A stretch of DNA of 64,000 nucleotides. It comes from Candidatus Rokuibacteriota bacterium (GTDB lineage Bacteria; Methylomirabilota; Methylomirabilia; Rokubacteriales; CSP1-6). The position numbers and the translations under genes were made by a program. The stretch is taken from positions 11,485 through 75,484 of the forward strand of contig JACPDG010000057.1 in assembly GCA_016184125.1 (NCBI GenBank). The letters are read 5' to 3'. Positions 8,579-64,000 of the stretch are shown one piece after another. The first letter of the stretch is position 1; each line of letters starts with the position of its first letter. The notes under the pieces are model-generated. The model searched no databases. It saw only the letters and a list, made by a program, of their open reading frames with translations, and was not told the DNA's origin.

Positions 8579-8684
8579 TTGGTCACACCATGTGCGACGG
8601 CGGGGGCTGCATGAGTGCCCGCGGGCGCCGTTGAGACGTCAGAGGAACCGCACTCCCGGCCCGGCTCATGAAAGGTACTCGCTG

Positions 8685-10379: not shown

Positions 10380-10456
10380 TGGCGACGACACGCGAGAGGC
10401 TCGCGGGCTCCACGCCCGGGGCGGAGCGCGATGCGCTCCCCCCCATGGCAACATAG

Positions 10457-11695
10457 ATGCGGCGACCGAGAGTCCTCGCGATGATCATGGCCGGCGGCAA
10501 GGGCGAGCGCCTGCATCCGCTGACCCGCGACCGCTCGAAGCCGGCGGTGCCCTACGGCGGCCGCTGGCGGATCATCGACTTCGTCCTGTCGAACTTCGCG
10601 AACTCCGAGCTGCTGGCGCTCTACGTCCTCGTGCAGTACAAGTCGCAGTCGCTCATCGAGCACCTGCGGCTCGCCTGGCGTACGGGCGGGGTGCTGCAGG
10701 ACTACTTCGTGACCGTCGTGCCGCCACAGATGCGGTTCGGCCCGGCGTGGTACCGCGGCACGGCGGACGCCGTCTTGCAGAACCTCAACCTCGTCGACGA
10801 CTTCAACCCGGACGTCGTCGCGGTCTTCGGCGCCGACCACATCTACCGGATGGACGTGAACCAGATGGTCGCCTTCCACCACGAATCGGGCGCCGAGGTG
10901 ACGATCGCCGCGCGCCGCGTCGATGTGAAGGAGGCGACCGCCTTCGGCGTGCTCGCCGTGGACCGGCACGCGCGGGTCGCCGAGTGGGAGGAGAAGCCGG
11001 CGCAGCCGAAGCCGACGCCCGACGATCCCGCGAGCGCGCTCGTGTCGATGGGCAACTACCTGTTCAACCGCCGGACGCTCGTGGACGCACTGCTGGCCGA
11101 CGCCCGGCGCTCCACCGACCACGACTTCGGCCGCTCCATCATCCCCGAGCTCGTGCCCGCCGGCCGCGTGTTCGTGTACGACTTCCAGCGCAACGAGGTG
11201 CCGGGCACGAAGCCGTACGAGGAGCCCGGCTACTGGCGCGACGTGGGGACGCTCGAGTCGTACTGGGACGCGCACATGGATCTCCTCGGCGAGTCCCCGC
11301 GCCTCGATCTCGACAACCGCCACTGGCCGATCCGCACCGCCTCGCACCCCGGTCCCGCCGCCCGCTTCATCGGCTCGGACGTGGACAACACGCAGGTCGC
11401 CGAGGGCTCGCTGATCAAGCGCGCCACGCTGAGGAACTCGATCCTCGGCCGGAGCGTCTGGGTGAACGAGGGCGCGGTCATCGAGGACTCGATCATCATG
11501 GACCACACGACCGTCGGGAAGGGGGCGAGGCTACGGCGCGCGATCGTCGACCGGTTCAACATCGTCGCCGCGGACACCGAGATCGGGTTCCATCCGGAGA
11601 CGGACCGCCGGCGGTACCACGTCGACCCGTCGGGGCTCGTCGTCGTCCCGCGCGGAGGCCGCAGGGAGTTCCTGCTCGGCCTCGAAGAGCTGTAG
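10457..11695 (+). CDS. glgC: Glucose-1-phosphate adenylyltransferase
   Basis: LAMIMAGGKGERLHPLT..KPAVPYGG..RIIDFVLSN and a full-length match to GlgC architecture. Confidence 0.9.
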   Translation: MRRPRVLAMIMAGGKGERLHPLTRDRSKPAVPYGGRWRIIDFVLSNFANSELLALYVLVQYKSQSLIEHLRLAWRTGGVLQDYFVTVVPPQMRFGPAWYRGTADAVLQNLNLVDDFNPDVVAVFGADHIYRMDVNQMVAFHHESGAEVTIAARRVDVKEATAFGVLAVDRHARVAEWEEKPAQPKPTPDDPASALVSMGNYLFNRRTLVDALLADARRSTDHDFGRSIIPELVPAGRVFVYDFQRNEVPGTKPYEEPGYWRDVGTLESYWDAHMDLLGESPRLDLDNRHWPIRTASHPGPAARFIGSDVDNTQVAEGSLIKRATLRNSILGRSVWVNEGAVIEDSIIMDHTTVGKGARLRRAIVDRFNIVAADTEIGFHPETDRRRYHVDPSGLVVVPRGGRREFLLGLEEL

Positions 11696-11705
11696 GCCCC
11701 GCGTC

Positions 11706-14096
11706 GTGAGTCACCCGCGCTCGATCATCGTCCACGGGCACTTCTACCAGCCGCCGCGCGAGAACCCATGGCTGGAAGAGGTCGAGGTCCAGGACTCCGC
11801 GGCGCCGGCGCACGACTGGAACGAGCGCGTCACCGCCGAGTGCTACGCGCCGAACACCGCCGCGCGACGCGTGAACGCGCACAACCGCATCCACGACATC
11901 GTGAACAACTTCGAGAAGATCTCGTTCAACGTCGGCCCGACGCTCATGAGCTGGCTCGAGCGGCACGCGGAGGACGTGTACCGCACGATCGTCGAGGCCG
12001 ACCGTGTGAGCGCCCGGGAGCGCGGGCACGGCAACGCGCTCGCGCAGGTCTACAACCACATGATCATGCCGCTCGCCACGCGGCGCGACCAGGTCACCCA
12101 GGTGCGCTGGGGGCTGGCGGACTTCCGCAGCCGCTTCTCACGCGAGGCGGAGGGCATGTGGCTGCCGGAGACCGCCGCCGACAGCGAGACGCTCGAGGTG
12201 CTCGCCGAGCACGGCGTGAAGTTCACGATCCTCGCGCCCAACCAGGCGTGGAGGATCCGGCCCCTCGACCGCGACGCGTGGGTCGAGGTCGGCGATCGGA
12301 TCGACCCGAGCCGGCCGTACCTCTGGCGCAGCCGCCGCGGACACGAGCTGACGCTCTTCTTCTACGACGGCCCCATCTCGCGCGCGATCGCGTTCGAGCA
12401 CCTGCTCGAGCGCGGCGAGACGCTCGTCGCACGGCTCAGGGACGGCTTCTCGGACGCCCGCGACTGGCCGGAGCTCGTGCACGGCGCCACCGACGGCGAA
12501 TCCTACGGTCATCACTCCAAGTTCGGCGACATGGCGCTCGCCGCCGCGGTGCAGCAGATCGAGGCGGAAGGGTTCGCGGATCTCACCAACTACGCCGCGT
12601 TCCTCGCCAAGCACCGGCCCACCTGGGCCGTCGAGATCCGCGAGCGGACGTCGTGGAGCTGCGCGCACGGGGTCGAGCGCTGGCGCGCGGACTGCGGTTG
12701 CCGGGTGAACCCGTCGACGCACCAGCGGTGGCGGGCGCCGCTGCGCGAGGCCCTCGACTGGCTGCGCGACCGGGTCGACGGGTGGTACGAGGCGCGTGCG
12801 GGAGCGCTGTTCCAGGACCCCTGGGCGGCACGCGACGAGTACATCGAGGTCATCCTCGACCGGTCTCCGGCGCGCCTGGCGGAGTTCCTCGGGCGCCATC
12901 AGCGCTCCCCGCTCGACGCGGCGGCCACGCTCGAGGCCCGCCGGCTGCTCGAGATGCAGCGCAACCGCTTGCTCATGTACACCTCCTGCGGCTGGTTCTT
13001 CGACGAGCTCAGCGCGCTCGAGCCGGTCCAGATCTTGAAGTACGCGGCCATCGCGATGCAGGACCTGCGGGACCTCGGCGGCGGTCCCCTCGAGCCGGAG
13101 CTCCTCCGGCGGCTCGAAGTCGCGCCGACGAACGTCCGCGAGTTCCGCGACGGCGCCGACGTCTGGCGCCGCCTCGTCCGCCCCGTCGCCGTCGACCTCC
13201 GCCGGGTCGTCGCGCACTATGCCATCAGCGGTCTCCTCGAGGACTACCCGGACGACATGCGGATCTACGCGTTCCGGGTGCGCCGGCTGGACGAAGTCGG
13301 CGAGTCGTACGCCGGCACGGCGCTCCGGATCGCGCACGTCCGCGTCAGCTCGGAGATCACCGGCGACACGAAGGAGCAGATGTACGCCGTGCTGCACTTC
13401 GGCGGGCACGACTTCTCGTGCGGCGTGAGGGCGTGGGAGGACCGGGTCACGTACGACGAGATGAAGGCGCAGCTCACGAGCCGGTACGCGCGCTTCTCGA
13501 TGGCCGACATGGTCCGGGCGATGGACGACTGGTTCCCGGGCCAGTCGTTCTCGCTCCCGCACCTCTTCCTCGAGGAACGGCGCCGCGTCCTCGCGAACGT
13601 CACGCGGGCGGTGCTCGACAAGCACGAGGAGGCGTACCGGCGGATCTGGGACGAGAGCCGCAAGCTCGTGCACTACCTCCGGCAGGCCGATGCGCCGATC
13701 CCCGAGGCGCTCAGGATCGTCGCGCGGCACGTCCTCGAGGAGGAGGCGCGCGCATTGCTCGCGACGGTGCCCCAGGCGCGCGCGATCCCGCACACCCTGT
13801 TCGAGCTCGTCGACGAGGCCCAGGCGCTCGGGCTCACCCTCGACCTCACCCCCGCGCGACCGGCGATGCACGAGGCCGTCCGCACCGCGCTCGCCGCCGT
13901 GGCCGAGGTGCCGCGGCCCGAACGCGCGGCCGACGCCCTCGCGCTCGTGTCCGGCGCTCAGCAGCTCGGTGTGCGGTTCGGCCTCTGGGCGGTCCAGAAC
14001 CAGTTCTTCGACATCTGGCGCGCGCGGCCCGGCGACCGACTGGTGCTGCAACCGCTCGCGCTCGCCCTCGGCTTCGAGCTGCCGCTGACGCCGTGA
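11706..14096 (+). CDS. GH57-family glycoside hydrolase with DUF3536 C-terminal domain
   Basis: N-terminal IIVHGHFYQPPREN..NVGPTLMSWLE (GH57). A long C-terminal extension, 796 aa in total. It ends with TGA overlapping the treY GTG (GTGA). Confidence 0.75.
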   Translation: MSHPRSIIVHGHFYQPPRENPWLEEVEVQDSAAPAHDWNERVTAECYAPNTAARRVNAHNRIHDIVNNFEKISFNVGPTLMSWLERHAEDVYRTIVEADRVSARERGHGNALAQVYNHMIMPLATRRDQVTQVRWGLADFRSRFSREAEGMWLPETAADSETLEVLAEHGVKFTILAPNQAWRIRPLDRDAWVEVGDRIDPSRPYLWRSRRGHELTLFFYDGPISRAIAFEHLLERGETLVARLRDGFSDARDWPELVHGATDGESYGHHSKFGDMALAAAVQQIEAEGFADLTNYAAFLAKHRPTWAVEIRERTSWSCAHGVERWRADCGCRVNPSTHQRWRAPLREALDWLRDRVDGWYEARAGALFQDPWAARDEYIEVILDRSPARLAEFLGRHQRSPLDAAATLEARRLLEMQRNRLLMYTSCGWFFDELSALEPVQILKYAAIAMQDLRDLGGGPLEPELLRRLEVAPTNVREFRDGADVWRRLVRPVAVDLRRVVAHYAISGLLEDYPDDMRIYAFRVRRLDEVGESYAGTALRIAHVRVSSEITGDTKEQMYAVLHFGGHDFSCGVRAWEDRVTYDEMKAQLTSRYARFSMADMVRAMDDWFPGQSFSLPHLFLEERRRVLANVTRAVLDKHEEAYRRIWDESRKLVHYLRQADAPIPEALRIVARHVLEEEARALLATVPQARAIPHTLFELVDEAQALGLTLDLTPARPAMHEAVRTALAAVAEVPRPERAADALALVSGAQQLGVRFGLWAVQNQFFDIWRARPGDRLVLQPLALALGFELPLTP

Positions 14097-20191: not shown

Positions 20192-22143
20192 AGGACCTCA
20201 AGAAGACCGTGATCATCGAGCACGTGGAACCCACGGTGGACGGCGGCCGCTACCCCGCGAAGCGCGAGGTCGGATGCGTCGTCGAGGTCACCGCGGACAT
20301 CTTCAAGGAGGGCCACGACAAGCTCCTCGCGTGGCTCAAGTACCGCCGCGCCGACGCGAGCGCCTGGGACGAGACCCCCATGCGTTTCGTCGACAACGAC
20401 CGCTGGGCCGGCCGGTTCAAGCTGACGCAGAACACGCGGTACGTGTTCACGATCGAGGCGGTCATCGACGTGTTCGGCTCCTGGCTCGCCGACCTCGAGA
20501 AGCGGCTCGCCGCCCGCCAGCCGGACCTCTCGAGCGAGCTGATCGAAGGCGCGGCCCTCGTCCGCGATGCGCTCCTCCGGGCGCGTGACGAGGACCGCGC
20601 GCGCCTCGAAGCGTACGCGGGCCGCATCGCCGCCACGGCGGACCAGCCGGCCGCCGCGGAGGCGGCGCTCGACCCCGCGCTCACCGTGCTGATGGAGGCG
20701 GCCGTGGACCGGACGGACGCCACGTGGTGCGACCGCGAGTTCGAGATCGTCGCGGACCGCGCGCGCGCGCGCTTCGCCGCCTGGTACGAGTTCTTCCCGC
20801 GCTCGGGGCAGGTTCCCGGGAAGCATGGCACGTTCCGGGACGCCGAGTTCCAGCTTCGCCGCGCCGCCTCCATGGGCTTCGACGTCGTGTACCTGCCACC
20901 GATCCACCCCGTCGGGCGGCGATTCCGCAAGGGCCGCAACAACGCGCTCGAGGCGCAGCCGGACGATCCCGGGAGCGTCTGGGCGATCGGGAGCGAGGAA
21001 GGCGGTCACGCCGCCGTCCATCCGGAGCTCGGGACCATCGAGGACTTCGATGCCTTCGTCGCCACGGCGCGCAGCCTGGGGCTCGAGGTCGCGCTCGACT
21101 TCACCATCCAGGCCTCGCCGGATCACCCGTGGGTCCGAGAGCACCCCGAGTGGTTCTTCCACCGCCCGGACGGCACGATCAAGTACGCCGAGAACCCGCC
21201 GAAGAAATACCAGGACGTGTACCCGCTCAACTTCAGCGGCCGCGACCCGGAGCCGCTCTGGCGGGAGATGCGGCGAGTCCTCGAGTTCTGGATCTCGCAC
21301 GGGGTCAAGAGCTTCCGCGTCGACAACCCGCACACCAAGCCCGTCCGGTTCTGGGAGTGGCTGATCCGGGACATCCAGACCGAGCACCCGGACGTGATCT
21401 TCCTGTCGGAAGCGTTCACGCGGCCGAAGATGATGAAGGTCCTCGCCAAGGCCGGGTTCACGCAGTCGTACACGTACTTCACGTGGCGCAACGAGAAGCA
21501 GGAGCTCATCGACTACTTCACCGAGATCACGTCCCCGCCGGTGAGCGATTACTTCCGCGGCAGCCTCTGGCCGAACACGCCGGACATCCTGCACGAGACC
21601 CTCCAGCGCGGCGGCCGTCCCGCGTTCAAGATGCGGCTCGTGCTCGCCGCCACCCTGTCCTCGCTCTACGGCATCTACTCCGGGTACGAGCTCTGCGAGA
21701 ACGTCCCGCGCGAGCCCGGCTCCGAGGAATACCTGAACTCCGAGAAGTACGAGCTCAAGACCCGGAACTGGCGGGAGCCGGGCAACCTGGTGCAGTTCAT
21801 CACCCGCGTCAACGCGATTCGCCGCGAGCACCCGGCGCTGCAGTGTTACAGCAACCTTCGCTTCTATCCGTCGCTGAGCCCGTCGGTGCTGTGGTACGGC
21901 AAGATGACGCCGGACCGGGACGACGTCGTGCTCGTGGCGGCGAGCCTCGACGTCAGCCAGACGCAGGAGACGCTGGTCGAGGTGCCGCTCGACGAGCTCG
22001 CGATGAGCGAGCACGAGCCGTACCTGATGCATGAGCTGCTGAGCGACAGCACGTGGGAGTGGCGCGGACGCCGCGGCTACGTGAAGCTCGACCCGCACGT
22101 GGACTCCACGCAGATCTTCGCCCTGCGCCGCCTGCGGGGATGA
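20188..22143 (+). CDS. glgE: Alpha-1,4-glucan:maltose-1-phosphate maltosyltransferase
   Basis: ATG overlaps the upstream stop (ATGA). [36 protein letters not shown] are typical of GlgE (GH13_3), about 651 aa. Confidence 0.9.
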
Positions 22144-22207
22144 CGGGGCGACTCCGCACCTCGGCTCCTCCACGCACCCCCGGTGCGGGCGCGCGACACC
22201 CGGGACC

Positions 22208-23874
<1,667 letters not shown>

Positions 23875-23878
<4 letters not shown>

Positions 23879-33560: not shown

Positions 33561-33740
33561 CTGCTCGACGGCGCCGCCCTCGAGGTACGTGTCGGGATCA
33601 CGGTCGAACTTCTGCTTGCAGCCCACCGCGCAGAAGTAATAGGTCTCGCCCTGGTACTTCGACTGCGCCGCCGCCTTCGCGGGCTCGACGTCCATGTGGC
33701 ACACGGGGTCCTTCGCCATCGCATCGTCCTCCTTCATCCG
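33555..33740 (-). CDS. YHS-domain metal-binding protein
   Basis: [25 protein letters not shown] is the YHS/TRASH-type motif. It lies immediately downstream of copA, and its stop codon lies within the end of a GC-hairpin repeat copy. Confidence 0.7.
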
Positions 33741-36037
33741 CGTGTGCGCGCGGATCCGGTTGCGTGGGCGGTGGCCGGCGCCCGCGACACGCGGTCGCTC
33801 GGTGCCCAGCGCTTGAGCCTCAGGCTGTTGGTCACGACCGAGACCGACGAGAACGCCATGGCGGCGCCGGCCAGGATCGGCGACAGCAGCACGCCCCAGA
33901 TCGGGTAGAGAACGCCGGCCGCGACGGGGATGAGCACCACGTTGTAGCCGAACGCCCACACGAGGTTCTCCTTGATGATGCGGATCGTCCGGCGGGACAG
34001 CCCGACGGCCGCCACGACCGCGCGCAGGTCGCCGCGCATGAGGGTCACGTCCGCGGCCTCGATCGCCACGTCGGTCCCGCCGCCCATCGCGATGCCCACG
34101 TCGGCCTGCGCGAGCGCCGGCGCGTCGTTGATCCCGTCGCCGACCATGGCCACGAGGCGCTCCTCCGCCTGGAGACGTTTCACCTCGCGCGCCTTGTCCT
34201 CGGGGAGCACCTCCGCCAGCACCCGGTCGATTCCCGCCTCGCGCGCGATCGCCCGCGCGGTGACTCGGTTGTCGCCCGTCAGCATGACGACGCCGATGCC
34301 CAGCCGTCTCAGCTCCGCGACCGCGTCGCGGGCTTCGGGCTTGAGCACGTCCGCGGCGGCGATGAGGCCGAGCAGCCGGCCGGCGAACGCCACGAACATC
34401 ACGGTCTTGCCCTCCGCGGCGAGCCGATCTGCGCCGGCCTCCGCGTCACCGACCTCGATGCCGCGCATGTCCATCATCGTGCGATTCCCGAGGAGCACGC
34501 GGCCGTCGGGGGCGAGCGCGTCGATACCCTGTCCGGGGACCGTCGTGAATTCCGTCACCGCGGGGAGCGCGAGACCGCGTTCCTTGGCCCGCGCGACGAT
34601 CGCCTCCCCGAGCGGGTGTTCGGATCCCTGCTCGGCGGCGGCGGCGATCGCCACGATCTCGTCGTCTCCGGCGCCCCGCATGGCGATCACGTCGGTCACG
34701 ACCGGCCGGCCCACCGTCAGCGTGCCGGTCTTGTCGAAGACGATGGTGCCGACGCGGTGGAGCAGCTCAAGCGCCGCCGCGCTCTTGATGAGGATGCCGT
34801 GCTCGGCGCCGCGGCCGGTGCCCACCATGATCGCGGTCGGCGTCGCGAGGCCCATCGCGCACGGACACGCGATGACGAGCACCGCGACGGCGTTCGTCAG
34901 CGCCATCATCAACGCGAGCTCGGGACCGAGCGCCCACCAGGCGGCGAACGTGAGCGCCGCGAGGAGGAGCACGATCGGGACGAACACCGCGGCCACCCGG
35001 TCCGCCAGCCGCTGGATCGGCGCCCTCGATCCCTGGGCCTCCTCGACGAGCTTGATGATGCGCGCGAGCGTCGTCTCGCTGCCGACGCGCGTCGCGCGGA
35101 ACACGAAGCTGCCGGTGCGGTTCACCGTCCCGCCGACGACGAGCGCGCTCGGGCCCACGGCCACCGGCACGCTCTCCCCGGTGAGCATCGACTGATCGAT
35201 GGTCGAGGTACCCTCCACGACGAGACCGTCGACCGGGATCCGCTCGCCGGGACGGATGCGGACGAGATCACCGACCTGGACCTCGGCCGTCGGGACGTCG
35301 ACCTCCTGCCCGTCGCGCAGCACGCGCGCGGTCCGCGGCGCGAGGTGCATGAGCCGACGGATCGCGTCCGACGTCCGGCCGCGCGCCCGCGCCTCGAGCC
35401 ACCGCCCGAGCACCACCAGCGTGATTACCACCGCGGCGGTCTCGTAGTACGTCATCGCGCCGTGGCCCATGAACCGGTGCGGCCACAGCGTGACCGCGAC
35501 ACTGAAGAAGAACGCCGCGTTCGTCCCGATCGAGACGAGCGTCGACATCGACGCGGAGCGGTAGCGCAGGTCCCGGAGGAAGCCGGCATGGAACTGCGAG
35601 CCGACCCAGAACTGGACGGGGGTGGCGAGCACCAGCTGGAGCCATGGGCTCCGCAGCCACGCGGGCGCGAAGGGGAACAGCTCCGGCATGCCGCCCACCA
35701 GGACCGGGAGCGAGAGGACCGCGCCAGCCAAGAACTTCGCGCGCATCAGCCGCTGCTCGCGCTCCCGCGCCTCTCGCTCGCGATCGACGTGCTCCGGTGC
35801 GGATGGCGCCTCGGCGAGCTCGTACCCGGCATGCGCGACGGCGTCGCGCAACCCGGCGAGGTCCGTCCGTCCCGCATCGAACGCGATGCTCGCCTGCTCG
35901 GTCGCGAGGTTCACGGAGGCCTCGGCCACCCCCGGCACGTCCTTCAGCGCGCGCTCCACCTTCCCGACACACGCGGCGCAGTGCATGCCGCGGACGGGGA
36001 GCGTCAGCCGCTCGCGATCACGGGTCACCGTCTCCAT
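33734..36037 (-). CDS. copA: Copper-translocating P1B-type ATPase
   Basis: N-terminal HMA domain ([12 protein letters not shown]), CPC motif ([12 protein letters not shown]), [15 protein letters not shown]. Length 767 aa. Confidence 0.9.
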
Positions 36038-36046
36038 CGATCCAGC

Positions 36047-36328
36047 CTACCGCCCGCCGAAGCGGGAGAACACGTCCAGGAGCTCGTCGATCTTCCGCTG
36101 CCGCTCGGTCTTCGTGCCCGACCGCATCGCGTCCGCGACGCACGACTCGATGTGGCGGCCGAGCAGGAGCTTCTGGACCTGCTCGAGCGCCCCCTGCACC
36201 GCCGAGACCTGCAGGAGAATGTCGACGCAGTACGCGTCGGCCTCGATCATCCGCTGGAGGCCCTGCACTTGACCCTCGATCCGCCGCAGGCGGCCGAGCG
36301 CCTTCGTCCTCGTGTCGTCGTCGATCAT
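36047..36328 (-). CDS. csoR: CsoR-family copper-sensing transcriptional repressor
   Basis: KALGRLRRIEGQVQGLQRMIEADAYCVDILLQVSAVQGALEQV..LGRHIESC carries the C-H-C metal-site residues of the CsoR/RcnR family. The start is at the internal MIDDDT. Confidence 0.8.
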   Translation of the reverse strand: MIDDDTRTKALGRLRRIEGQVQGLQRMIEADAYCVDILLQVSAVQGALEQVQKLLLGRHIESCVADAMRSGTKTERQRKIDELLDVFSRFGGR

Positions 36329-36368
36329 CGCGTTCGCCTCGATCCTCGCCGAGCCTGTCGGGGCACGA

Positions 36369-36383
36369 TACCCCCAGGGGGTA
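36369..36383. promoter_or_regulatory. Putative CsoR operator (TACCCCC-A-GGGGGTA perfect palindrome), about 40 nt upstream of csoR
   Basis: A perfect 7-1-7 GC-tract inverted repeat of the type bound by CsoR (compare the B. subtilis copZA operator TACCCTACGGGGGTA). Confidence 0.6.
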
Positions 36384-36464
36384 GTGTGCAGGACGCCGGC
36401 GGCGGCTGTCAACACCGCGAAGGTGAGACGGCGGTCCGGCTCACCGGAGGCTCAGCGCCCGTGA

Positions 36465-38567: not shown

Positions 38568-40094
38568 CTAACGCACCTGGATTTCGTAATCCTCGCGCTG
38601 CGGATGCCCGCCCTGCGTCTGGACGGTGATCTTCACGTCGAGCGACGTGCCGAGCTGGCGGAGCACGTCCTTGCCGTCGTTCTCGAGGTAGTGGACGAGC
38701 TCCGGGTGGGCGCGCACGACGATCTCGCGCCCCGGCTGGGTGGCCAGCCTCGCCTGGATCGCCCGGAGGATCTCCGCGGTGAGTGTCGCGTCGGAGCGGA
38801 TCACGCCGCTGCCCTTGCAGGTCGGGCACGCGGTCGACAGCAGCGACCGGAGATCCTGCCGGACGCGCTTGCGCGTCATCTCCACGAGACCGAGCTCCGA
38901 GATGTCGAGCACGTTCGTCCGCGCCTTGTCGTCCGCGAGCGCCTTCTTGAGCGCCTTCTCGACCTCCGCGCGGTGCTCCGGCCGTTCCATGTCGATGAAG
39001 TCGATGATGATGATGCCGCCGAGATCGCGCAGCCGGATCTGGCGGACGACCTCGTTCACCGCCTCGAGATTGATCTTGAGCACCGTCTGCTCGAAATCCC
39101 GCTTGCCGACGTACTTGCCCGTGTTGACGTCGATCGAGACGAGCGCCTCGGTGTGGTCGATCACGATGTAGCCGCCGGACTTGAGCCACACGCGCCGGCG
39201 AAGCGCCTTCTCGATCTCGCGCTCGATGCCGTACGTCTCGAAGATCGGCACCCGCCCCTCGTACCGCTTCACGCGGTCGGCGAGCCCGGGCACGAGCGCC
39301 TGCACGTCGCTCACGCTCTTCGCGTAGACGTCCGGGTCGTCGACGACGAACTCCTCGACGTCGGTCGACATCAGATCGCGCAGGACGCGGAACGTGAGGT
39401 CCATCTCCTGGTGCAGCACGGCCGGCGCCCGCGACTGCTCGTGGCGGCCGTTGATCTGGGCCCAGAGACGGCCGAGGAACGCCAGGTCGGCCGCGAACTC
39501 CTCCGCGCCCTTGCCCTCCGCGTTCGTGCGCAGGATGAAGCCGCCGGGCGGCGGGTTCAGCTCGCGCAGCACGCTGCGCAGCCGGTCACGCTCGCGCTCG
39601 TCGCGAATGCGGCGCGACACGCCGATGTGGCTCGTCTGGGGCATGTAGACGAGGTACCGGCCGGGCAGCGAGATGAACGAGGTGACGCGCGCGCCCTTGG
39701 TTCCGAGCGACTCCTTCGACACCTGCACGAGCACGTCCTGGCCCTTGCGCAGCAGCTCCTCGATCGGCGTCGTCGGCTCGCGCCGCGGCGGCTCCTCGTC
39801 GACGTCGACGTCGGCGTCCGGCTCCCCCTCGCTCGCGAGCATCTCGCGGACGTACTCGCCGAGGTTGGCCGTGTAGTCGCCGGCGTAGAGGAACGCGTCC
39901 TTCGCGAGGCCGATGTCGACGAACGCGGCCTGCATCCCCGGCAGGACGTTCGTCACCGTGCCCTTGTAGACGCTGCCCACGATCGAGCGCTGCCGGTGGC
40001 GCTCGAGGTACAGCTCGACGAGGACGTTACTCTCGAGGACGGCGACCCGGGTCTCGGTGAGCCCCGCGTTGACGACGACGATCCGTTTGCCCAC
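38568..40094 (-). CDS. rng: Ribonuclease G/E family endoribonuclease
   Basis: S1 domain plus catalytic domain (GGIIIIDFIDM..CPTCKGSGV). Length 508 aa. Confidence 0.85.
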   Translation of the reverse strand: MGKRIVVVNAGLTETRVAVLESNVLVELYLERHRQRSIVGSVYKGTVTNVLPGMQAAFVDIGLAKDAFLYAGDYTANLGEYVREMLASEGEPDADVDVDEEPPRREPTTPIEELLRKGQDVLVQVSKESLGTKGARVTSFISLPGRYLVYMPQTSHIGVSRRIRDERERDRLRSVLRELNPPPGGFILRTNAEGKGAEEFAADLAFLGRLWAQINGRHEQSRAPAVLHQEMDLTFRVLRDLMSTDVEEFVVDDPDVYAKSVSDVQALVPGLADRVKRYEGRVPIFETYGIEREIEKALRRRVWLKSGGYIVIDHTEALVSIDVNTGKYVGKRDFEQTVLKINLEAVNEVVRQIRLRDLGGIIIIDFIDMERPEHRAEVEKALKKALADDKARTNVLDISELGLVEMTRKRVRQDLRSLLSTACPTCKGSGVIRSDATLTAEILRAIQARLATQPGREIVVRAHPELVHYLENDGKDVLRQLGTSLDVKITVQTQGGHPQREDYEIQVR

Positions 40095-40148
40095 GGCAGC
40101 ACCTCGCTGACGCGAGCGGCGACCGGCAGGGCCGGCCCGACTCGCGTC

Positions 40149-41243
40149 TCATTGGAACTGCCGCATCCGGACCGAGACGAGGAGTCCGAGGGCCACGAGG
40201 GAGACGAGCATCGACGAGCCCCCGTAACTCATCAGAGGCAACGGGATGCCGACGACCGGCAGGAGACCCGTGACCATCCCCACGTTGACGAGGATCTGGG
40301 TGGCGAAGAGCCCCGTCACGCCCAGGGCCACGAGCCGCCCCACCGGATCGCGGGAGGAGGCGGCGATGTCGAAGCCCCGGAGGAGGAGGATCGCGTAGCC
40401 GGCCAGCAGCACCAGACAGCCGACGAATCCCCACATCTCGGCGAACACGGCGAAGATGAAATCTGTATGGCGCTCCGGGAGGAAGGCGAGCCGGCTCTGC
40501 GTCGCGCCGCTCACGCCCTTGCCCAGGAGCTGCCCCGAACCGATGGCGATCTTGGCCTGGATCACGTTGTACGCGCTCCCGAGGGGATCGCGCAGCGGAT
40601 CCAGGTACACGAGGACACGTTCCCGCTGGTAATCCTTGATCAGCAGCCAGCCGACCGGCATCGCGGCCGCGCCCATGCCCGCGATCCAGGCGAGGAGCCG
40701 GACGCTGATGCCGGCGCCGAACAACAGCAGGATCAGCACGGGAAAGAGCAGCACCGCCGTGCCCAGGTCGGGCTGCTTCACGATGAGCCCGGCCGGGACC
40801 AGCACGACGGGGAGGATCCAGAGGAGCGTCGAGACGGTGATGGGCTGCGCCCACCGCGAGCAGAGCAGCCACACGAGCATCAGCACGAACGCGATCTTGA
40901 AGATCTCCGACGGCTGGACGCTGAAGGCGCCCACGCCGATCCACCGGCGCGCGCCCGAGACGGTCTTGCCCACGACGAAGATGGCGACGAGGCCCGCGAG
41001 GCCGAGCACGTAGAAGAGCGGTGCGACCTGCACGAACCGCCGGTAGTCGATGCTGATGACGACGACGAGGGCAAGGAGGCCGATGCCGAACCACGCGAGC
41101 TGCCGCAACGCCACCGCCGACCCCGCCCGTCCGGGGTGCAGGGTCATGAGCGTCGTGGCCGAGACCGCGACCAGCACGGTCGCGGTCACGAGCAGCCCCC
41201 AGTCGACGTTCTGGAGCAGCCGGCGGTCGATCTTGAGCGTCAT
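40149..41243 (-). CDS. rodA: Rod shape-determining protein RodA (SEDS family)
   Basis: 364 aa, multi-TM, FtsW/RodA/SpoVE motifs (LPERHTDFIFAV..GLLPVVGIPLPLMSYGGSS). Confidence 0.85.
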   Translation of the reverse strand: MTLKIDRRLLQNVDWGLLVTATVLVAVSATTLMTLHPGRAGSAVALRQLAWFGIGLLALVVVISIDYRRFVQVAPLFYVLGLAGLVAIFVVGKTVSGARRWIGVGAFSVQPSEIFKIAFVLMLVWLLCSRWAQPITVSTLLWILPVVLVPAGLIVKQPDLGTAVLLFPVLILLLFGAGISVRLLAWIAGMGAAAMPVGWLLIKDYQRERVLVYLDPLRDPLGSAYNVIQAKIAIGSGQLLGKGVSGATQSRLAFLPERHTDFIFAVFAEMWGFVGCLVLLAGYAILLLRGFDIAASSRDPVGRLVALGVTGLFATQILVNVGMVTGLLPVVGIPLPLMSYGGSSMLVSLVALGLLVSVRMRQFQ

Positions 41244-43063
41244 CCGCGGATGTCGATCGACGCGACCTTCTCGAGGAAGATTGCCTCGTAGATCTTCTTG
41301 GCGATCGGGGCCGCGACCTGACCGCCCTTGCCGCCGCCCTCGACCATCACGACGACGACGACCTGAGGATCGTGCGCCGGCGCGAAGGACGCGAACCAGG
41401 CGTGGTCCTCACCCTTGTCCGCCCGCGAGTTGGTCATCGTCTGCGCCGTCCCGGTCTTGCCCGCGATATCGAGCCCCGGGATGCGTGCCCCGCCGCCCGT
41501 GCCGCCCTCGTTCACGACGCTCCACAGGCTCTTGCGCAGGAATTCCTGGACGATCGGCGACAGCTCGACGTAGCCCATCACCTTGCCGGGATCGTTCCAC
41601 ACGACCCCGCGTTCGGATCGTTCGATGCGCTGCACCAGCCGCGGCTTCCACAACACACCACCGTTCGCCAGCGCCGACATGAACCGCGCGACCTGAATCG
41701 GCGTAACGAGGACCTGGCCCTGTCCGATCGACATGTTCACCGTCTCGCCTGCATGCCAGATCAGGCGGCCGCGCCGATCGCGCTTCGGGGCCGGGATGAG
41801 CCCCGGCTTTTCCCCGGAGAGGTCGATCCCGGTCGCCTGGCCGAGGCCGAACATGCGCGCGTATTTCGCGATCGCCTCGGCGCCGACCCTGAGTCCCGCC
41901 TGGTAGAAATAGATGTTACAGGACTGGACGATCGCCCGGCGCAGGTCGACGGACCCGTGTCCCTCCTTCTTCCAGTCCTTGAACGTCAGTCCGCCCAGGT
42001 GGAACTCGCCGCTGCAGAAGACGCGGTCCATCGGAGTGAGCTTTCCCTCCTGCAGCCCCGCGGCGGCGACGACGACCTTGAAGACCGACCCGGGCGCGTA
42101 CTGACTCTGGATGACGCGGTTCAACAGCGGATGCTTCGGGTCCTGGACGATCGAGAGCCACGCGGCGCGGTCGATGGTGCCGGTGAACCGGTCGATCTCG
42201 AACGCCGGCGCCGAGACCATCGCAAGCACGTCGCCGGTGCGTGGATCCATGACGACCACGGCCCCGGCACGCCCCTCGAACGCGCGCTCGGCGGCCCCCT
42301 GGATGCGGCGGTCGAGCGTCGTCACCACCTGGGCGCCCGGCTCGGGCTCCTTGTGCTGGATGAGGCGGATCGGCCGGCCCAGCGCGTCGACCTCGATCTG
42401 CTCACCGCCGTCGCGGCCCCGCAGGTACTCGTCGAGGAGGCGCTCGAGTCCGCTCTGGCCCACCATGTCGCCACGCCGGTAGCGTCCCTGGCGCAGCTGC
42501 TCGTCGGTGGCCTCGCGCACGTAGCCGAGCAGGTGCGCGGCGAAGCGGCTCGTCGGGTACGCGCGCTGCGGCTCCACCTCGACGATCACGCCGGGCAGCT
42601 CGATCTTCCACTCCTCGATCTTGGCGACGTCCTCGAGCCCGAGCCCGCGACGGATGCGCACCGGCTGGAACGAGTCCGGCGACGCCCGCTCGGCCGCCTG
42701 CACGAGGTCCTCGTACGGAATGCGGAGGAGCGACGCCACACGGCCGAGCACGGCGCCGCGCCGCGCGGGATCGCGGTCGAGCTCGCGCGGGATCAGCGAC
42801 AAGGTGAACGCCGGTCGGTTGTCGACGAGCGGACGGCCGTAGCGGTCGAACAGGATGCCGCGCGGGGCCGCGACCGGGCGGATGCGGGTTCGGTTCTTGT
42901 CCGAGGCGTCGAGGAAGCGGCCCCCCTCGAGCACCTGCAGATACCAGAGCTGCGCGACGATCACGAGCAGCGCGGCCATGACCGAGACCGTGATCGCGAC
43001 GATGCGGCGCTCGTCTCCGCTCCCGGCTGGTCCGAGCCTGGCGTGACGGGGTTGCACGCTCAC
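41240..43063 (-). CDS. mrdA: Penicillin-binding protein 2 (transpeptidase)
   Basis: N-terminal TM, dimerisation domain, SxxK (APGSVFK), SxN and KTG (GKTGTAQ) motifs. Confidence 0.9.
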   Translation of the reverse strand: MSVQPRHARLGPAGSGDERRIVAITVSVMAALLVIVAQLWYLQVLEGGRFLDASDKNRTRIRPVAAPRGILFDRYGRPLVDNRPAFTLSLIPRELDRDPARRGAVLGRVASLLRIPYEDLVQAAERASPDSFQPVRIRRGLGLEDVAKIEEWKIELPGVIVEVEPQRAYPTSRFAAHLLGYVREATDEQLRQGRYRRGDMVGQSGLERLLDEYLRGRDGGEQIEVDALGRPIRLIQHKEPEPGAQVVTTLDRRIQGAAERAFEGRAGAVVVMDPRTGDVLAMVSAPAFEIDRFTGTIDRAAWLSIVQDPKHPLLNRVIQSQYAPGSVFKVVVAAAGLQEGKLTPMDRVFCSGEFHLGGLTFKDWKKEGHGSVDLRRAIVQSCNIYFYQAGLRVGAEAIAKYARMFGLGQATGIDLSGEKPGLIPAPKRDRRGRLIWHAGETVNMSIGQGQVLVTPIQVARFMSALANGGVLWKPRLVQRIERSERGVVWNDPGKVMGYVELSPIVQEFLRKSLWSVVNEGGTGGGARIPGLDIAGKTGTAQTMTNSRADKGEDHAWFASFAPAHDPQVVVVVMVEGGGKGGQVAAPIAKKIYEAIFLEKVASIDIRG

Positions 43064-43070
43064 GCCCGGA

Positions 43071-43559
43071 TCACGCGGCCCGGTCGCGCACGGCGTCCGT
43101 CCACGCGAGGAGCAGGACGACCGCGGCGCCGAGGAATCCGTTGTACAGGGCCTGCGGCAGAACCACGTACGTCATGAGCTCGCCGAAGGAGGCCGGGAAG
43201 TGGAAGAGCTTCAGCAGTCCGAACCGCCCGACGCCCTCGGCGACCGAGAGGAGCACCAGCCCGGGCACCTGGACGAGTGGCTGGGCGACCGCGAGCCGAC
43301 CGGAGAGGCCGCCGACCAGCGCGCCGATCGTGGCCTTCGTCAGCCCCTGCACACCGACAAGTCCGCCGGCGGCCACGTCCTGCAGCAGGCCGGCGGCGAA
43401 CCCGGTCAGGCAGCCGACCTCGGTGCCGCGGCGGAGCGCGACGAGCACGACGATGATCAGCGGGATGTCGGGAGCGATATCGCCGACGCGGATCGCGGGT
43501 GCGATCGTCGCCTGCGCGACGTTGCCGCCGAAGATGGTCAGCAGCAGGAAGGCGCGCAC
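43071..43559 (-). CDS. mreD: Rod shape-determining protein MreD
   Basis: GTG start 11 nt after the mreC stop. 162 aa, highly hydrophobic. Position in the mreBCD order. Confidence 0.7.
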   Translation of the reverse strand: MRAFLLLTIFGGNVAQATIAPAIRVGDIAPDIPLIIVVLVALRRGTEVGCLTGFAAGLLQDVAAGGLVGVQGLTKATIGALVGGLSGRLAVAQPLVQVPGLVLLSVAEGVGRFGLLKLFHFPASFGELMTYVVLPQALYNGFLGAAVVLLLAWTDAVRDRAA

Positions 43560-43569
43560 GGCGACACGC

Positions 43570-44406
43570 TCATCCGTTCGGGGGAAAGTGGCCGGCGAGG
43601 TCCTGCGCGGTGCTCCCCGTGAGGAGCAGCACCTCGTCGACGCGCGCGAAGTCCACGACGGGCTCCAGCGCCGCATAGTGGAAGAGGGCGGCACCGCGGT
43701 CGTCGATGGCACGCACGCGGCCGACCGGGAGGCCGCGCGGGAACACGCCCCCCTGGCCCGCCGTGACGATGAGGTCACCCACCTGGATCTGGTTGCCGTC
43801 GCGCGCCATGAACTTCAACCGCATCGTGCCTCGCGGCTCGCCCTCGACGATCCCCGGAGTGCGTGTGCGGACGGCGTGAGCGCCGACGGTCGACGCGGGG
43901 TCGGTGAGCACCTGCACGATCGACACGCCCAGGCGCACGTCGACGACACGACCGATGAGACCGTCGGGCGTGATGGCGGCCGTGAGCCGGGTGACGTTGT
44001 CTCCGCGACCGCGGTTCACGGTCAGCGAGCGGACCCACCCGCCCCATTCGCGGGCGATGACCTCCCCGGCGAGCGTGTCCAGCGGCAGGCGTGCCCGCAG
44101 GTCGAGCAGCCGGCGAAGTCGGCGGTTCTCGTCCTGCACCTCGGCGACGACGAGGCCGTCGATCCGGAACTTCCGGATCTCCTCGCGCAGGCGGGTGTTT
44201 TCGTTGCGGACGTCCTTCCAATCCAGGTAGGTGGCCCAGAGCCCGAACGTGGCACGGTAGACGCGGGTGAGCACCGTGTGCACCGGCGTCGTGACGACGG
44301 CGACGACGTCGGCGGCGCCGGACGCCTGGCCGCGCGTCTGGAGCGTGAGCAGGACGAGGCACACGAAAATGACCCCGGCCAGCACCAGCACCCCACGACG
44401 TTTCAC
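43570..44406 (-). CDS. mreC: Rod shape-determining protein MreC
   Basis: N-terminal TM, coiled coil, beta-rich C-terminus (RLTAAITPDGLIGRVVDV). Length 278 aa. Confidence 0.85.
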   Translation of the reverse strand: MKRRGVLVLAGVIFVCLVLLTLQTRGQASGAADVVAVVTTPVHTVLTRVYRATFGLWATYLDWKDVRNENTRLREEIRKFRIDGLVVAEVQDENRRLRRLLDLRARLPLDTLAGEVIAREWGGWVRSLTVNRGRGDNVTRLTAAITPDGLIGRVVDVRLGVSIVQVLTDPASTVGAHAVRTRTPGIVEGEPRGTMRLKFMARDGNQIQVGDLIVTAGQGGVFPRGLPVGRVRAIDDRGAALFHYAALEPVVDFARVDEVLLLTGSTAQDLAGHFPPNG

Positions 44407-44434
44407 GCGATCGGACCCCGCAGTGGCGACGCCG

Positions 44435-45484
<1,050 letters not shown>

Positions 45485-60774: not shown

Positions 60775-60896
60775 GGCCCTCAGGCCGAGCGGGAAGTCGA
60801 GGAGCGCCGCGGGTTCCCCGCGGCGCTTCCGAGCGCCGGGGGGGGGTGGGGAGGGGGGTGGGGGGCCATCTCGGGGCCCCCCATGAGGTCGGTTCA
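60775..60896. repeat. GC-hairpin repeat copy R10 (reverse orientation), abutting the dnaB stop
   Basis: ..TTCCGAGCGCCGGGGGGGGGTGGGGAGGGGGGTGGGGGGCCATCTCGGGGCCCCCCATGAGGTCGGTTCAG. Confidence 0.65.
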
Positions 60897-63800
60897 GAAC
60901 GGCTGGGAGGCGCGAGCCGGGTCGGCGATGTTCTCGAAGCGCGCGTACTCCGGCAGGAAGACGAGCTTCACGGTCCCGATCGGGCCGTTGCGCTGCTTGC
61001 CGATGATCACCTCGGCGATCTTCTCTTCCTCGGGCGGCACGTCTTCCTTGTACACGCGCGAGCGATAGAGGAAGAGGATCAGGTCCGCGTCCTGCTCGAG
61101 GGCGCCCGAATTGTGACTGACGATACCGTCCGCGAGCCACGACGCAGGACCGGGAACTGTCAAGTCGAAGACGTCCTCCTCACCGTCGGCCGCCACCCGC
61201 ACGACTCGGTCCCAGAAGAGATCGCTCGTTGCCTGCGCCTCGAGCTCCTCGTCGCAGAGAATGTTTGCGTACTCAGCAACGACCGCGCGCGACGGCGCGC
61301 ACCGGAGCTGCGACGTACCCCCGTACGCCGTGCCGCGCAACCCGGCCATCCGTCGCTGCGAGATGCGGCGCTCGCGCATCAGACGCTTCACGCGCTCGAA
61401 CACCTCGCGCGGCAGCGTATCGACGTTCGTGTTCACGTCGCGATCCGCGAGCGCAGCGGCGAGTGCTCGCGCCTGGGGCTCGCGAGGACCGAACGCGCCG
61501 ACGGCGTCGAGAAAACGCCGCTGGTCGGCGCCGCCGGACACTGACACGAAGAAGCTCGTGCGATAGGTTCCCTTCCGGGCCGACGAGATCCTCGCAACGA
61601 TCCCGAGCCTCATCAGCAGCGCGGCGACGTCCGTCGCCAGTCCCGCACTGTTGGTACTGTAGAAGACCGAGTGACTGCCTCGCCCACGCCGAGGAACGAT
61701 AGTGCCATCCGTCGCCCACAGGTGTCGGAGGAGGAGGGCGATCTGCGCGTTCGAGAGGCGGAAGGCATCCTCGGGAACCCGCTTCTCGTGCGAGCGCTGC
61801 CCGAAGATCCCGAGCTGGCGCAGCCATGCGTTCACGCCCCTCGGGTGCCACCGGTCGCCGTTGCCGCTGATGAGCAGCTGATGCCAACCTCGCCGACCAC
61901 GGTACCGCGTGACGTCACACCCGAACTCCTCGCGCGCCGCCTCTGCAACGATGGCGCTGTTCTCTTCGGAGCCCGTCGTGTACCGGAGTGGCTGATGGCT
62001 GAGGGAGCTGCCGTCACCGATGAGCTGGCCGAGGAGCGCAACGCGAGCGTCGGGCCAGGACTCGGGGGACAGCGGCTCCGGGAGATGCCGCGCAAGCGCG
62101 ACGCGGTCGCCTTTGATCAATTCGGTGACCGTCTGCCATCCGCGACCGGTGAAGACCCGGTGCTCGGCCGTCGCCCGGATGGTACGGCCGCTCGCCAGCC
62201 CCACGCGGAAGACCGGTCGTGTCCCGACCTTCCAGATCCGCTCGCTCTTCGCCGCGACGATCTTCCCGGCCGGTGACATGGCGAGCACCTCGGGGGAGGT
62301 GTCCACGAGCTCCCGGATCGGAGCTCGACGTCCGTCGGAAAGCAGCACGACCGTGTCTGCCGTCACGCATTCGCGAAGGTCGGAGAGCTGCGGACGGAAG
62401 TCGCGCTGCGCGCGGCTCTCGACGGCGCGCGACAGCTGCGAGAGGGCCACGACGGGGATGTTGAGCTCCTTCGCGAGGGCCTTCAGGGATCGCGAGATCT
62501 CGGAGATCTCCTGCTGGCGGTTCTCCATCGACGCGCGGCCGCGCATGAGCTGCAGGTAGTCGATGACGACCAGATCCAGCCCGTGCTCGGCCTTCATCCG
62601 CCGCGCCTTCGCGCGCGCCTCGAGCACGGTGATGCCCGGGCTGTCGTCGATGTAGATCTTCGCCTCGCTGAGCCGTCCCGCCGCGGCCGTGAGCCGATGC
62701 CAGTCGGCCGCCGTGAGATAGCCGGTGCGGACGGATTGCGAGTCGACCTTCGCCTCCGAGCACAGCATGCGCTGGACGAGCTGCTGGGACGACATCTCGA
62801 GCGACAGCACGAGCACGCTGGCGTGCAGGTGCACGCCGACGTGCTGCGCGATGTTGAGGGCGAAGGCCGTATTGTGCGTGACCACGTAGTCGCCGGTGAT
62901 GTACGTCCGCGAGGGATGCGTCACCGCGATGCACTGCGCCTCGGACAGGCGCGTCGGCTCGACGGAGACGAAGACCGGCCAGCGCCGCCGGCGAGGCGCC
63001 GAGAGCGGGCGCGCCCGCTTCGACGAGAGCTGGAACATCGTCTTCGGCTCGGAGTGCTGGATGTTGCAGACGTACGCGGGCCTCCCGGCATGCCGCGTCC
63101 CGGCGTGGCTGTATGTGGTGCGCCGGCGGCGGACCGAGCACCACCCGCCCAGGGAGCGGACGAGATCCGCGACATCGCGCGCCAACCGCGCGCTCGTCGA
63201 GCAGAACCGAGCGCTGCCCCAGCGTTCCACCCACCCGTCGGTGTCCATGAGACCGGACAGGAGCGCGAGACGGGCGTCGCGGGAAGCGTTCAGATAGACG
63301 GCGGGGATGAACTTCTCCTCCGAGCGGATGCCCCACAGGCCGAGGCGTCTCAGTGACTCCATGAGCGTGTTCGGGGCAACCCCGGCCACGCCCTTGCGAT
63401 GCGCACCGGCGGCCTGGACGATACGCCAGTCGTCACCGCCCCCGGCGCGAAGCGCGAACGCCGCCGTGGCATGCTCCAGAACGAGCTCGCGGATCTCGGC
63501 GTCGGCCGTCGAGAACATCAGGCTGCTGCCGGAGAGCTTCCCGTCGCCGAGCCGCGCGCCGAGCAGCCAGGGGTCGATCGGGAGCGGCTCGTCGTGGCCG
63601 AAATCGCCCGACGGCGCGTCGATCCAGAGCCGGTGCCGATAGCGCGCTCGGCGGAGCAGCGCGGCGACGCGCTCGGTGGTCAGCACGCGCGGCTCGCGCC
63701 AGCGGCGGTCATGCACCCGCCAGAGATGCTCGGCGGTGCATTCCGTCGATCGGCCGTCGGAGAACGTCACCCGGTGGATCTGCTGCCGCCCCTGCGGGAA

Positions 63801-64000
63801 GATGCCGCTCACGAACGAGGGCCGGCCGTCGATGGAGGCGAGCGCGTCGCCGAGTCGCAGGTCGCCCATGCGCTTCCATCCCGTCACCGTCTTGACGGGC
63901 GCGTCGAGCGGCTGCGCCTTCCCCATGCTCGGGCGGCCCGCGATGATGATGAAGTCCGACGGCTGGAACCCCGACGTCTCCATGTCGAGCTTCTCGAACC
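60894..64000 (-). CDS. dnaB: Replicative DNA helicase DnaB (partial, N-terminus beyond window) containing two inteins
   Basis: Extein pieces are ..[13 protein letters not shown] / [30 protein letters not shown] / [16 protein letters not shown].. (Walker A, H4 motif). They are interrupted by a 349-aa element and a 420-aa element. Confidence 0.9.
61110..62369 (-). other. Class-1 intein with LAGLIDADG homing endonuclease, at the DnaB site before SGAIEQDAD
   Basis: It starts [22 protein letters not shown] and ends [20 protein letters not shown] followed by Ser+1. [10 protein letters not shown] and [12 protein letters not shown] are LAGLIDADG motifs. The end block resembles the Ssp DnaB intein. 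Confidence 0.85.
62871..63917 (-). other. Class-3 intein (Ala1, WCT-type) in the DnaB P-loop, with a LAGLIDADG homing-endonuclease domain
   Basis: Inserted between GRPSMGK and T. It starts with Ala. Block B is [12 protein letters not shown] (T7, H10, W12). Block F carries Cys (AQCIAV). Block G is VVTHN followed by Thr+1. LAGLIDADG-like [10 protein letters not shown] and [12 protein letters not shown] are present. Confidence 0.7.

Follow-up and report, generated by a model that had tools for sequence, protein, structure and literature searches.

The window analyzed here, a 64-kb stretch of Rokubacteria/Methylomirabilota DNA taken as a whole, ends within dnaB, the gene of the replicative DNA helicase, and this gene is interrupted by two inteins. 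dnaB is read on the minus strand, with its stop codon at 60894-60896 and its frame still open at the window edge (64000); its 5' end, about 200 codons (~600 nt) encoding the N-terminal ~200 amino acids (aa), lies beyond the window. Translation of 60894-63998 gave 1034 codons and a stop codon in one uninterrupted frame of about 3.1 kb. A preliminary description of this DNA had placed two inteins of 349 and 420 aa in dnaB at 60894-64000, and its coordinates, lengths and quoted strings all matched the translation; the minus strand and the missing first ~200 codons were not mentioned there. The parts of the gene are given below, where a slash between residues marks an insertion point.

60894..64000, minus strand: dnaB (replicative DNA helicase), partial; C-terminal RecA-like domain and two inteins in a single open frame
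63918..63998, minus strand: N-extein fragment, whose last residue is the Walker A Lys; in intein-free relatives its sequence runs directly into TAFALNIA
62871..63917, minus strand: intein 1, 349 aa, class-3 (Ala1 / Trp-Cys-Thr), carrying a LAGLIDADG endonuclease domain; splits the P-loop between GRPSMGK and TAFALNIA (GK/T)
63720..63755, minus strand: block B of intein 1, with Cys60 (B6), Thr61 (B7), His64 (B10) and Trp66 (B12)
63540..63566, minus strand: LAGLIDADG motif 1 of intein 1, LLGARLGDG, Asp125 kept
63234..63263, minus strand: LAGLIDADG motif 2 of intein 1, Asp227 kept
62895..62942, minus strand: block F of intein 1, EAQCIAV, with Cys329 (F4) at 62931-62933, the predicted first nucleophile
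62868..62891, minus strand: block G of intein 1, DYVVTHN, with Thr347 (G5), His348 and Asn349, plus Thr+1
62370..62870, minus strand: middle extein, 167 aa, from TAFALNIA to SDLRE (from the translation); 85-90% identity to DnaB of Rokubacteria/Methylomirabilota
61110..62369, minus strand: intein 2, 420 aa, class-1 with a LAGLIDADG endonuclease domain, at LRE/SGALEQD in the H4 / DNA-binding loop
62010..62036, minus strand: LAGLIDADG motif 1 of intein 2, LLGQLIGDG, its Asp present in 96 of 97 sequences
61704..61733, minus strand: LAGLIDADG motif 2 of intein 2, with the WATDG Asp
60897..61109, minus strand: C-extein, ending in ASQPF (from the translation)

A Pfam search of the translated frame found DnaB_C (E = 4.9e-95) split into three stretches, together with LAGLIDADG_3 and an intein splicing domain. 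The inserts occupy aa 28-376 (intein 1) and aa 544-963 (intein 2) of the 1034-codon frame. After removal of both, the 265-aa extein, which represents the C-terminal part of DnaB, matched TIGR00665 in a single stretch with 405.7 bits, the cut-off of this DnaB equivalog model being 385.25 bits. The G+C content at third codon positions (GC3) was 0.91 in intein 1, 0.82 in intein 2 and 0.95 in the extein, so that the inteins differ little from the host gene in GC3.

The boundaries of the inserts were determined by comparison with related genomes. The 167-aa middle extein was used as the query and dnaB loci were fetched from one genome per species. The closest 40 loci came from Rokubacteria / Methylomirabilota metagenome-assembled genomes with exteins 75-90% identical to that of the window, and about 30 of the 40 showed uninterrupted sequence across both insertion sites. 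The DNA of empty alleles, for example L001 or L003 (L numbers denote these loci), reads CCGAGCATGGGCAAG/ACGGCCTTCGCG around GRPSMGK-TAF and GACCTTCGCGAA/TCGGGCGCCCTCGAG around LRE-SGA. Since about 30 relatives carry precise empty sites, the insert ends (A…N after Lys and C…N after Glu) are exact independently of the reading of the open frame. The boundaries given in the preliminary description, at GRPSMGK/TAFALNIA and before SGALEQD, were therefore borne out, and the look for empty sites in relatives that it had proposed revealed precise empty alleles at both positions.

Four occupancy states were found among these relatives. Both sites were empty in most loci, both were filled in L004, L005, L006, L008 and L018, only the P-loop site was filled in L009, L014, L020, L025, L026 and L029, and only the second site in L016 and L042. 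Locus L018 (Rokubacteria GWA2_73_35) carries a full-length pair of 349 and 421 aa, as in the window, with identities of 76% for intein 1, 74% for intein 2 and 87% for the middle extein. A decayed intein 1 of 310 aa, shortened by 39 aa and with substitutions at both catalytic Asp, was present in L004, L006 and L008. Mini forms of intein 2, 151-214 aa long with the endonuclease deleted, were present in L004, L005, L006, L008, L016 and L042, the L016 copy being an intermediate that has the first LAGLIDADG motif only. The N-terminal DnaB domain, which in the window falls beyond the edge, was present and free of inteins in L018 and L009. Occupied, empty and decayed states together make up the standard picture of a homing cycle.

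The flanks of the P-loop site (site b) were compared between L001-L039 and the window (63918-63947). The Ser codon of PSMGK was AGC or AGT in all intein-bearing and nearest empty alleles and TCN in a deeper, wholly empty clade (L021-L039). This AGY versus TCN split, the one pattern in the flank comparison, followed clade as well as occupancy, and it could reflect either lineage or a target preference of the endonuclease.

Class-3 inteins are defined by the lack of an N-terminal nucleophile, a Trp-Cys-Thr (WCT) triplet and Ser or Thr at +1 (Tori 2010, PMC2807308). Their hosts are helicase-like proteins, in which the P-loop is the main insertion site (PMC2807308); the mechanism was proven with two of them, Msm DnaB-1 and Mle DnaB (Tori 2016, PMC5222942). 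Intein 1 begins with AQPLDAPV and ends with VVTHN, followed by a Thr at +1 that doubles as the Walker A Thr. When intein 1 was compared with all PDB sequences using phmmer, the best matches were class-3 DnaB mini-inteins from M. smegmatis (6BS8, E = 2.6e-7) and M. chimaera (6RIX and 6RIY); the alignments covered blocks A-B and F-G, with 6BS8 and 6RIX both at E ~2.5e-7.

The reference class-3 intein (341 aa) was taken from the record of mycobacteriophage Bethlehem (AY500153). It was located in gp11, the terminase, the annotated DnaB-like helicase gp62 being free of inteins; intein 1 gave no match within Bethlehem bases 30000-52250. The extracted sequence agreed with the published numbering (P1, S62, H65, W67, I224, C320, T339 and N341) and also with the published native flanks, VSQDQ / TKNTF (PMC2807308). 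Residues A1, T61, H64, W66, C329, T347 and N349 of intein 1 shared alignment columns with these numbered residues of the Bethlehem intein, and both LAGLIDADG motifs aligned too. The triplet Trp66/Cys329/Thr347 corresponds to W67/C320/T339 of Bethlehem and to W67/C118/T137 of 6BS8, and N349 corresponds to N139 of M. smegmatis (Msm) DnaBi1 (6BS8; numbering per PMC6195587). Position 1 is the non-nucleophilic Ala1, which shares its column with Ala1 in Msm DnaBi1 and Pro1 in the Bethlehem intein; the further class-3 residues Thr+1, His64, His348 and Asn349 are present. The insertion point separates Lys from Thr of Walker A in the DnaB P-loop and is the position occupied by Msm DnaBi1 (PMC6195587) and known as the 'classic' P-loop site (Kelley 2016, PMC5050341). 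By every sequence criterion intein 1 is a class-3 intein. The preliminary description had proposed this class from Ala1, Trp at B12, the Cys in block F and Thr at G5, and the Bethlehem and 6BS8 alignments confirmed it: no canonical nucleophile was found at position 1, and the block-F Cys held its place on proper block alignment.

A metagenome protein search with intein 1 matched 200 proteins, with E-values down to 3e-161. A1, Cys B6, His B10, Trp B12, Cys F4, Thr G5 and the final His and Asn were kept in all 27 full-length relatives, in which the +1 residue was Thr (22) or Ser (4). The intein of the window belongs to a subfamily with the signature AQPLD…EC[CT]xEHLW…QCI…THN, and it deviated from the family at 3 of 59 columns conserved in at least 85-90% of members (T61, R122 and T338). 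Relatives occurred in 823 phage records and were frequent in phage helicases. Others, 33-41% identical, were inserted right after the Walker A GK in PhoH proteins (P0089, P0091, P0098 and P0109), in AAA_24 proteins (P0116 and P0117) and in P0119. One relative (P0112) was seen in a non-P-loop protein, a Kitasatospora peptidoglycan-binding protein, at TVEGN/ALPLH…THN/TNDTG.

An AlphaFold2 (AF2) model of intein 1, built on its family, had a predicted local distance difference test score (pLDDT) of 93.5 and a predicted template modelling score (pTM) of 0.91. Foldseek aligned the model with PI-SceI over the full length (template modelling score, TM, 0.69-0.74), as well as with TliVMA, PI-PfuI and I-DmoI, and locally with 6BS8 (33% identity, root mean square deviation 2.2 Å). 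The splicing domain of intein 1 had no match to Pfam Intein_splicing, TIGR01445 or TIGR01443, even at E ≤ 1. Thus the comparison with intein hidden Markov models (HMMs) that had been suggested as a check succeeded for intein 2, whereas the splicing domain of intein 1 escaped the generic models. We discounted this null result as evidence against an intein because homology to PDB entries, the family alignment and the fold all agree; it is an annotation gap and does not contradict the identity of the intein. Database relatives of intein 1 were labelled only 'replicative DNA helicase', 'AAA family ATPase' or 'LAGLIDADG endonuclease'. Since generic HMMs miss the class-3 splicing domain, such genes tend to carry labels that do not mention an intein.

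Intein 2 starts with Cys1 (CVTADT), contains T67-A-E-H70 in block B and VFDLTV in block F, and ends in SHN followed by Ser+1. It matched Pfam Intein_splicing (70.3 bits), TIGR01445 (49.5 bits) and TIGR01443 (23.2 bits), and the intein-containing DnaB model NF005852 with 383 bits. Its nearest solved structures were the Ssp DnaB intein 1MI8 (E = 3.6e-20) and the Npu DnaB intein. More than 1600 database proteins matched intein 2; the best 120, from many phyla, were 57-73% identical and nearly all full-length, and several of them were annotated 'intein-containing replicative DNA helicase'. The LRE/C…HN/SG site was used by 95 of 96 extracted close relatives and is equivalent, to within ±2 residues, to the site of M. 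tuberculosis / Msm DnaBi2. Deviations were limited to 3 of 154 columns conserved in at least 90% (A4, L355 and C357). On its sequence features (Cys1, TAEH and SHN/S) and its HMM matches intein 2 is an ordinary class-1 DnaB intein, in agreement with its earlier description as canonical.

Both inteins keep two LAGLIDADG motifs, each with its acidic residue (D125 and D227 in intein 1), as had been proposed, and so have the make-up of two-motif LAGLIDADG endonucleases. The Pfam model LAGLIDADG_3 scored 23.4 bits in intein 1, against a cut-off of 22.5 bits, and 70.6 bits in intein 2.

The closest known parallel in layout, M. smegmatis DnaB, pairs a class-3 mini-intein in the P-loop (DnaBi1, site b) with a class-1 intein that contains an endonuclease and lies in the H4 loop (DnaBi2, site a) (Kelley 2018, PMC6195587). 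The host protein and the two-intein layout are those of the window. Msm DnaBi1, too, is of class 3 with Ala1/WCT and separates the Walker A Lys from the following Ser/Thr, and its blocks A, B, F and G align with those of intein 1; Msm DnaBi2 resembles intein 2 in belonging to class 1, in carrying an endonuclease and in its place within the H4 DNA-binding loop. On the other hand, DnaBi1 is a 139-aa mini-intein without an endonuclease, whereas intein 1 has 349 aa and a full LAGLIDADG domain; mycobacterial DnaB-b inteins in general lack the endonuclease (PMC5050341). The two also differ in block B (DxxH in DnaBi1, TxxH in the window), in the +1 residue (Ser and Thr, respectively) and in host, Actinobacteria for the former and Rokubacteria for the latter.

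The Bethlehem intein was named 'DnaB' and actually resides in the terminase large subunit (TerL1-c); it is the class-3 prototype (PMC2807308). It resembles intein 1 in size (341 versus 349 aa), in its HINT domain split around a LAGLIDADG endonuclease with both motifs alignable, and in the non-nucleophilic residue 1, His B10, Trp B12, Cys F4, Thr-His-Asn and Thr+1. Its endonuclease is experimentally active (PMC5050341). It differs in having only ~28% identity to intein 1, Pro instead of Ala at residue 1, and a phage terminase, not a cellular helicase, as host, with a site that is not GK/T. The P-loop class-3 inteins of PhoH, AAA_24 and phage helicases share with intein 1 the subfamily signature and the insertion after the Walker A GK, before Thr or Ser, and differ from it in host protein and in the low identity given above. 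Intein 2 has its counterparts in the DnaB inteins of Synechocystis sp. PCC6803 and Nostoc punctiforme (1MI8, 6FRG and 4O1R), which are class 1 and occupy the same DnaB DNA-binding loop. The Ssp DnaB intein lies two residues downstream, at RESG/SIEQD, with Gly at -1 (6FRG title), and the solved Ssp and Npu structures are of engineered minis, unlike the full-length intein 2. Intein 2 and the Ssp DnaB intein are homologous inteins at slightly shifted points of the same loop.

Taken together, we consider it highly probable that the window carries a chromosomal Rokubacteria/Methylomirabilota dnaB encoding a two-intein precursor, that both inteins, one class-3 and one class-1, excise themselves before the helicase works, and that they are capable of homing now or were so recently. 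Because position 1 is Ala, intein 1 cannot begin with the customary thioester at its N terminus. On the model of its homologues, the Bethlehem intein and DnaBi1 of M. smegmatis, block-F Cys329 is predicted to attack the bond after the Walker A Lys, giving a thioester-linked branched intermediate with the assistance of His64 and Trp66 of block B. The N-extein would then be moved to the side chain of Thr+1, forming the block G branched intermediate, after which cyclization of Asn349 would release the intein and an O-to-N shift would restore the GKT P-loop. For intein 2 an acyl shift at Cys1, attack by Ser+1 and cyclization of Asn420 would follow one another. Each LAGLIDADG endonuclease is expected to cut, or to have recently cut, intein-free dnaB alleles, so that the intein is copied in; homing of this kind would explain the patchy presence of both inteins in close relatives.

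Several observations weigh against parts of this reading. To begin with, both the splicing chemistry and the endonuclease cleavage are inferred from homology. It is possible, though on balance we doubt it, that the inteins splice while one or both endonucleases are dead, the inteins being immobile and vertically inherited and their patchiness the outcome of old invasions and later losses. Arg122 of intein 1 (63552-63554), within LAGLIDADG motif 1, stands where 92% of relatives have Leu, and Thr338 replaces a Leu conserved in 96%; these changes may impair the endonuclease or the splicing rate. Ala4 of intein 2 (62358-62360; block A, CVTADT in place of CVTGDT), where all 96 relatives have Gly, may also affect endonuclease activity or splicing rate. 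The LAGLIDADG_3 score of intein 1 is marginal, and all stages of endonuclease decay occur among relatives. The nearest intein relatives are only 72-76% identical, so that no very recent transfer is visible, and no clear co-conversion tract was seen in the flanking extein DNA. The patchy distribution could stem partly from losses and not from recent homing. Against a dead endonuclease, both inteins retain both catalytic Asp and the AF2 model folds the endonuclease domain of intein 1 confidently. Intein and extein identity were also poorly correlated: the identity of the intein 1 splicing domain tracked that of the extein only weakly (Spearman rho 0.23, p = 0.09), and L018 and L029 were 84% identical in the intein and 79% in the extein. 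The ratio of nonsynonymous to synonymous substitution rates (dN/dS, Nei-Gojobori) in the endonuclease domain was ~0.2 for intein 1 among full-length copies, 0.14 for intein 2 against L018 and 0.14-0.25 over both inteins, as low as in the splicing domains of both, and ~0.5 in intein 1 against the decayed 310-aa copies, while the extein gave ~0.1, a sign of strong purifying selection; all these values are rough, since dS was 0.6-1.2, near saturation. The intact motifs and the purifying selection support the earlier suggestion that the inteins may be active homing endonucleases.

As for the chemistry, intein 1 might splice without the block-F thioester, with Thr+1 attacking the N-junction directly in a class-2-like manner or with another nucleophile, such as Cys60, taking the place of Cys329. 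This we regard as improbable. It is true that, until Cys F4 is mutated, an intein bearing the class-3 signature might in principle follow the class-2 route as well as its own (PMC5222942), which tells against the scheme proposed above, and that Cys60 is invariant in the family and absent from characterized class-3 inteins. However, Cys F4 was required by all WCT inteins tested to date (PMC2807308, PMC5222942, PMC6195587). The WCT triplet is missing from known class-2 inteins (KlbA), which rely on Cys+1 (PMC2807308), whereas intein 1 has Thr at +1 and a full triplet that does not vary in its family, and Cys60 aligns with Ala61 of Msm DnaBi1, a non-catalytic position. More improbable still is that this dnaB is an accessory or degenerating copy, such as one of prophage origin, in which the inserts need no longer splice. 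The N-terminus of the gene and the remaining genome lie beyond the window, and a second dnaB may be present elsewhere, a further point against the reading preferred here; relatives of intein 1 are common in phage helicases; and there is a precedent in a mis-annotated 'DnaB intein' pseudogene of Arthrobacter FB24 (PMC3196547). Such decay is at odds with a 3.1-kb frame free of interruptions, with the intact catalytic residues of both inteins, with an extein that scores above the DnaB equivalog cut-off and is under purifying selection, with housekeeping neighbours of which the first two downstream genes are as in Rokubacteria L031, and with intein GC3 values near that of the host gene.

The reading of a spliced, two-intein precursor leaves room for a further role of block B. 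The Cys at position 6 of this block (Cys60, 63738-63740) was invariant in 27 of 27 full-length relatives, and position 7, Thr61 in the window, was Cys in 24 of the 27. Cys at block-B position 6 or 7 was not found in the characterized class-3 inteins Msm DnaBi1 and Bethlehem. Oxidative and zinc control has been shown for M. smegmatis DnaBi1, whose partner cysteine is not conserved; this redox partner, Cys48, has no counterpart in the window, whose subfamily has the invariant Cys B6 instead. We can only speculate that Cys60 pairs with Cys329, through a disulfide or zinc, as a conserved switch that would make DnaB maturation, and hence replication, dependent on redox state or metal, and that the lineage is still mobile among P-loop ATPase genes (DnaB, PhoH and AAA_24) via the DNA coding for Walker A; we hold this combined proposal to be unlikely. 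If the switch were real, it would represent a hard-wired form of the oxidative / zinc control of DnaBi1.

Few proteins host inteins as commonly as DnaB does (PMC7360933), and the two-site layout of a class-3 intein in the P-loop and a class-1 intein in H4 is already published for M. smegmatis DnaB (PMC6195587). Both inteins of the window have many database relatives, and the finding is correct and ordinary, one that would not surprise a specialist. The preliminary description had called class-3 inteins uncommon and the pair notable, which was overstated: the host is common, the P-loop is a typical site and the pair is known from M. smegmatis and L018. No papers linking inteins with Rokubacteria / Methylomirabilota were found in the literature searched, and the present locus extends the host range of the class-3 P-loop DnaB intein to this soil phylum. 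It also supplies a full-length, endonuclease-bearing DnaB-b intein, the mycobacterial versions studied being mini-inteins. The related genomes form a natural homing-cycle series within one essential gene, comprising empty, full-length, decayed-endonuclease and mini states, which could be used for the study of intein gain and loss and as a source of class-3 splicing domains for protein engineering. This polymorphic series and the invariant extra block-B Cys are the two small leads that arise from the locus.

The genes downstream of dnaB are, in order, an APC-type permease, a HhH-GPD glycosylase, an MFS transporter and an ABC-F protein, followed by a TRAP transporter; the permease and the glycosylase also lie 3' of dnaB in the related Rokubacteria genome L031. 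Further downstream are mreB, mreC, PBP2, rodA and RNase G, a CsoR-type repressor with a P-type ATPase, and a glycogen / GH57 cluster, annotated as follows.

33734-36451 and 38568-45484 (both sets together; cell-shape cluster on the minus strand): cell-shape cluster of RNase G, RodA, PBP2, MreC and MreB, and a CsoR-type metal-sensing repressor adjoining a heavy-metal P-type ATPase
6776-14096 and 22085-23878: glycogen / alpha-glucan cluster of an alpha-amylase/CBM48 protein, a GH57 branching enzyme, a GlgC-like nucleotidyl transferase, a GH57+DUF3536 protein and a maltogenic-amylase-like enzyme

The CsoR / P-type ATPase and cell-shape genes are ordinary chromosomal content. A phage or plasmid helicase was considered for the interrupted gene and ruled out, given the equivalog score of the extein and the chromosomal housekeeping genes around it. 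An actinobacterial source, which the 70% G+C and the mycobacterial precedent had suggested at first, was likewise dismissed, the relatives of the extein being Rokubacteria/Methylomirabilota. No tRNA genes were found in the 64-kb window, nor were any Rfam families at the gathering threshold. The G+C content was about 70% throughout the window, with a minimum of 0.656 at 26-28 kb.

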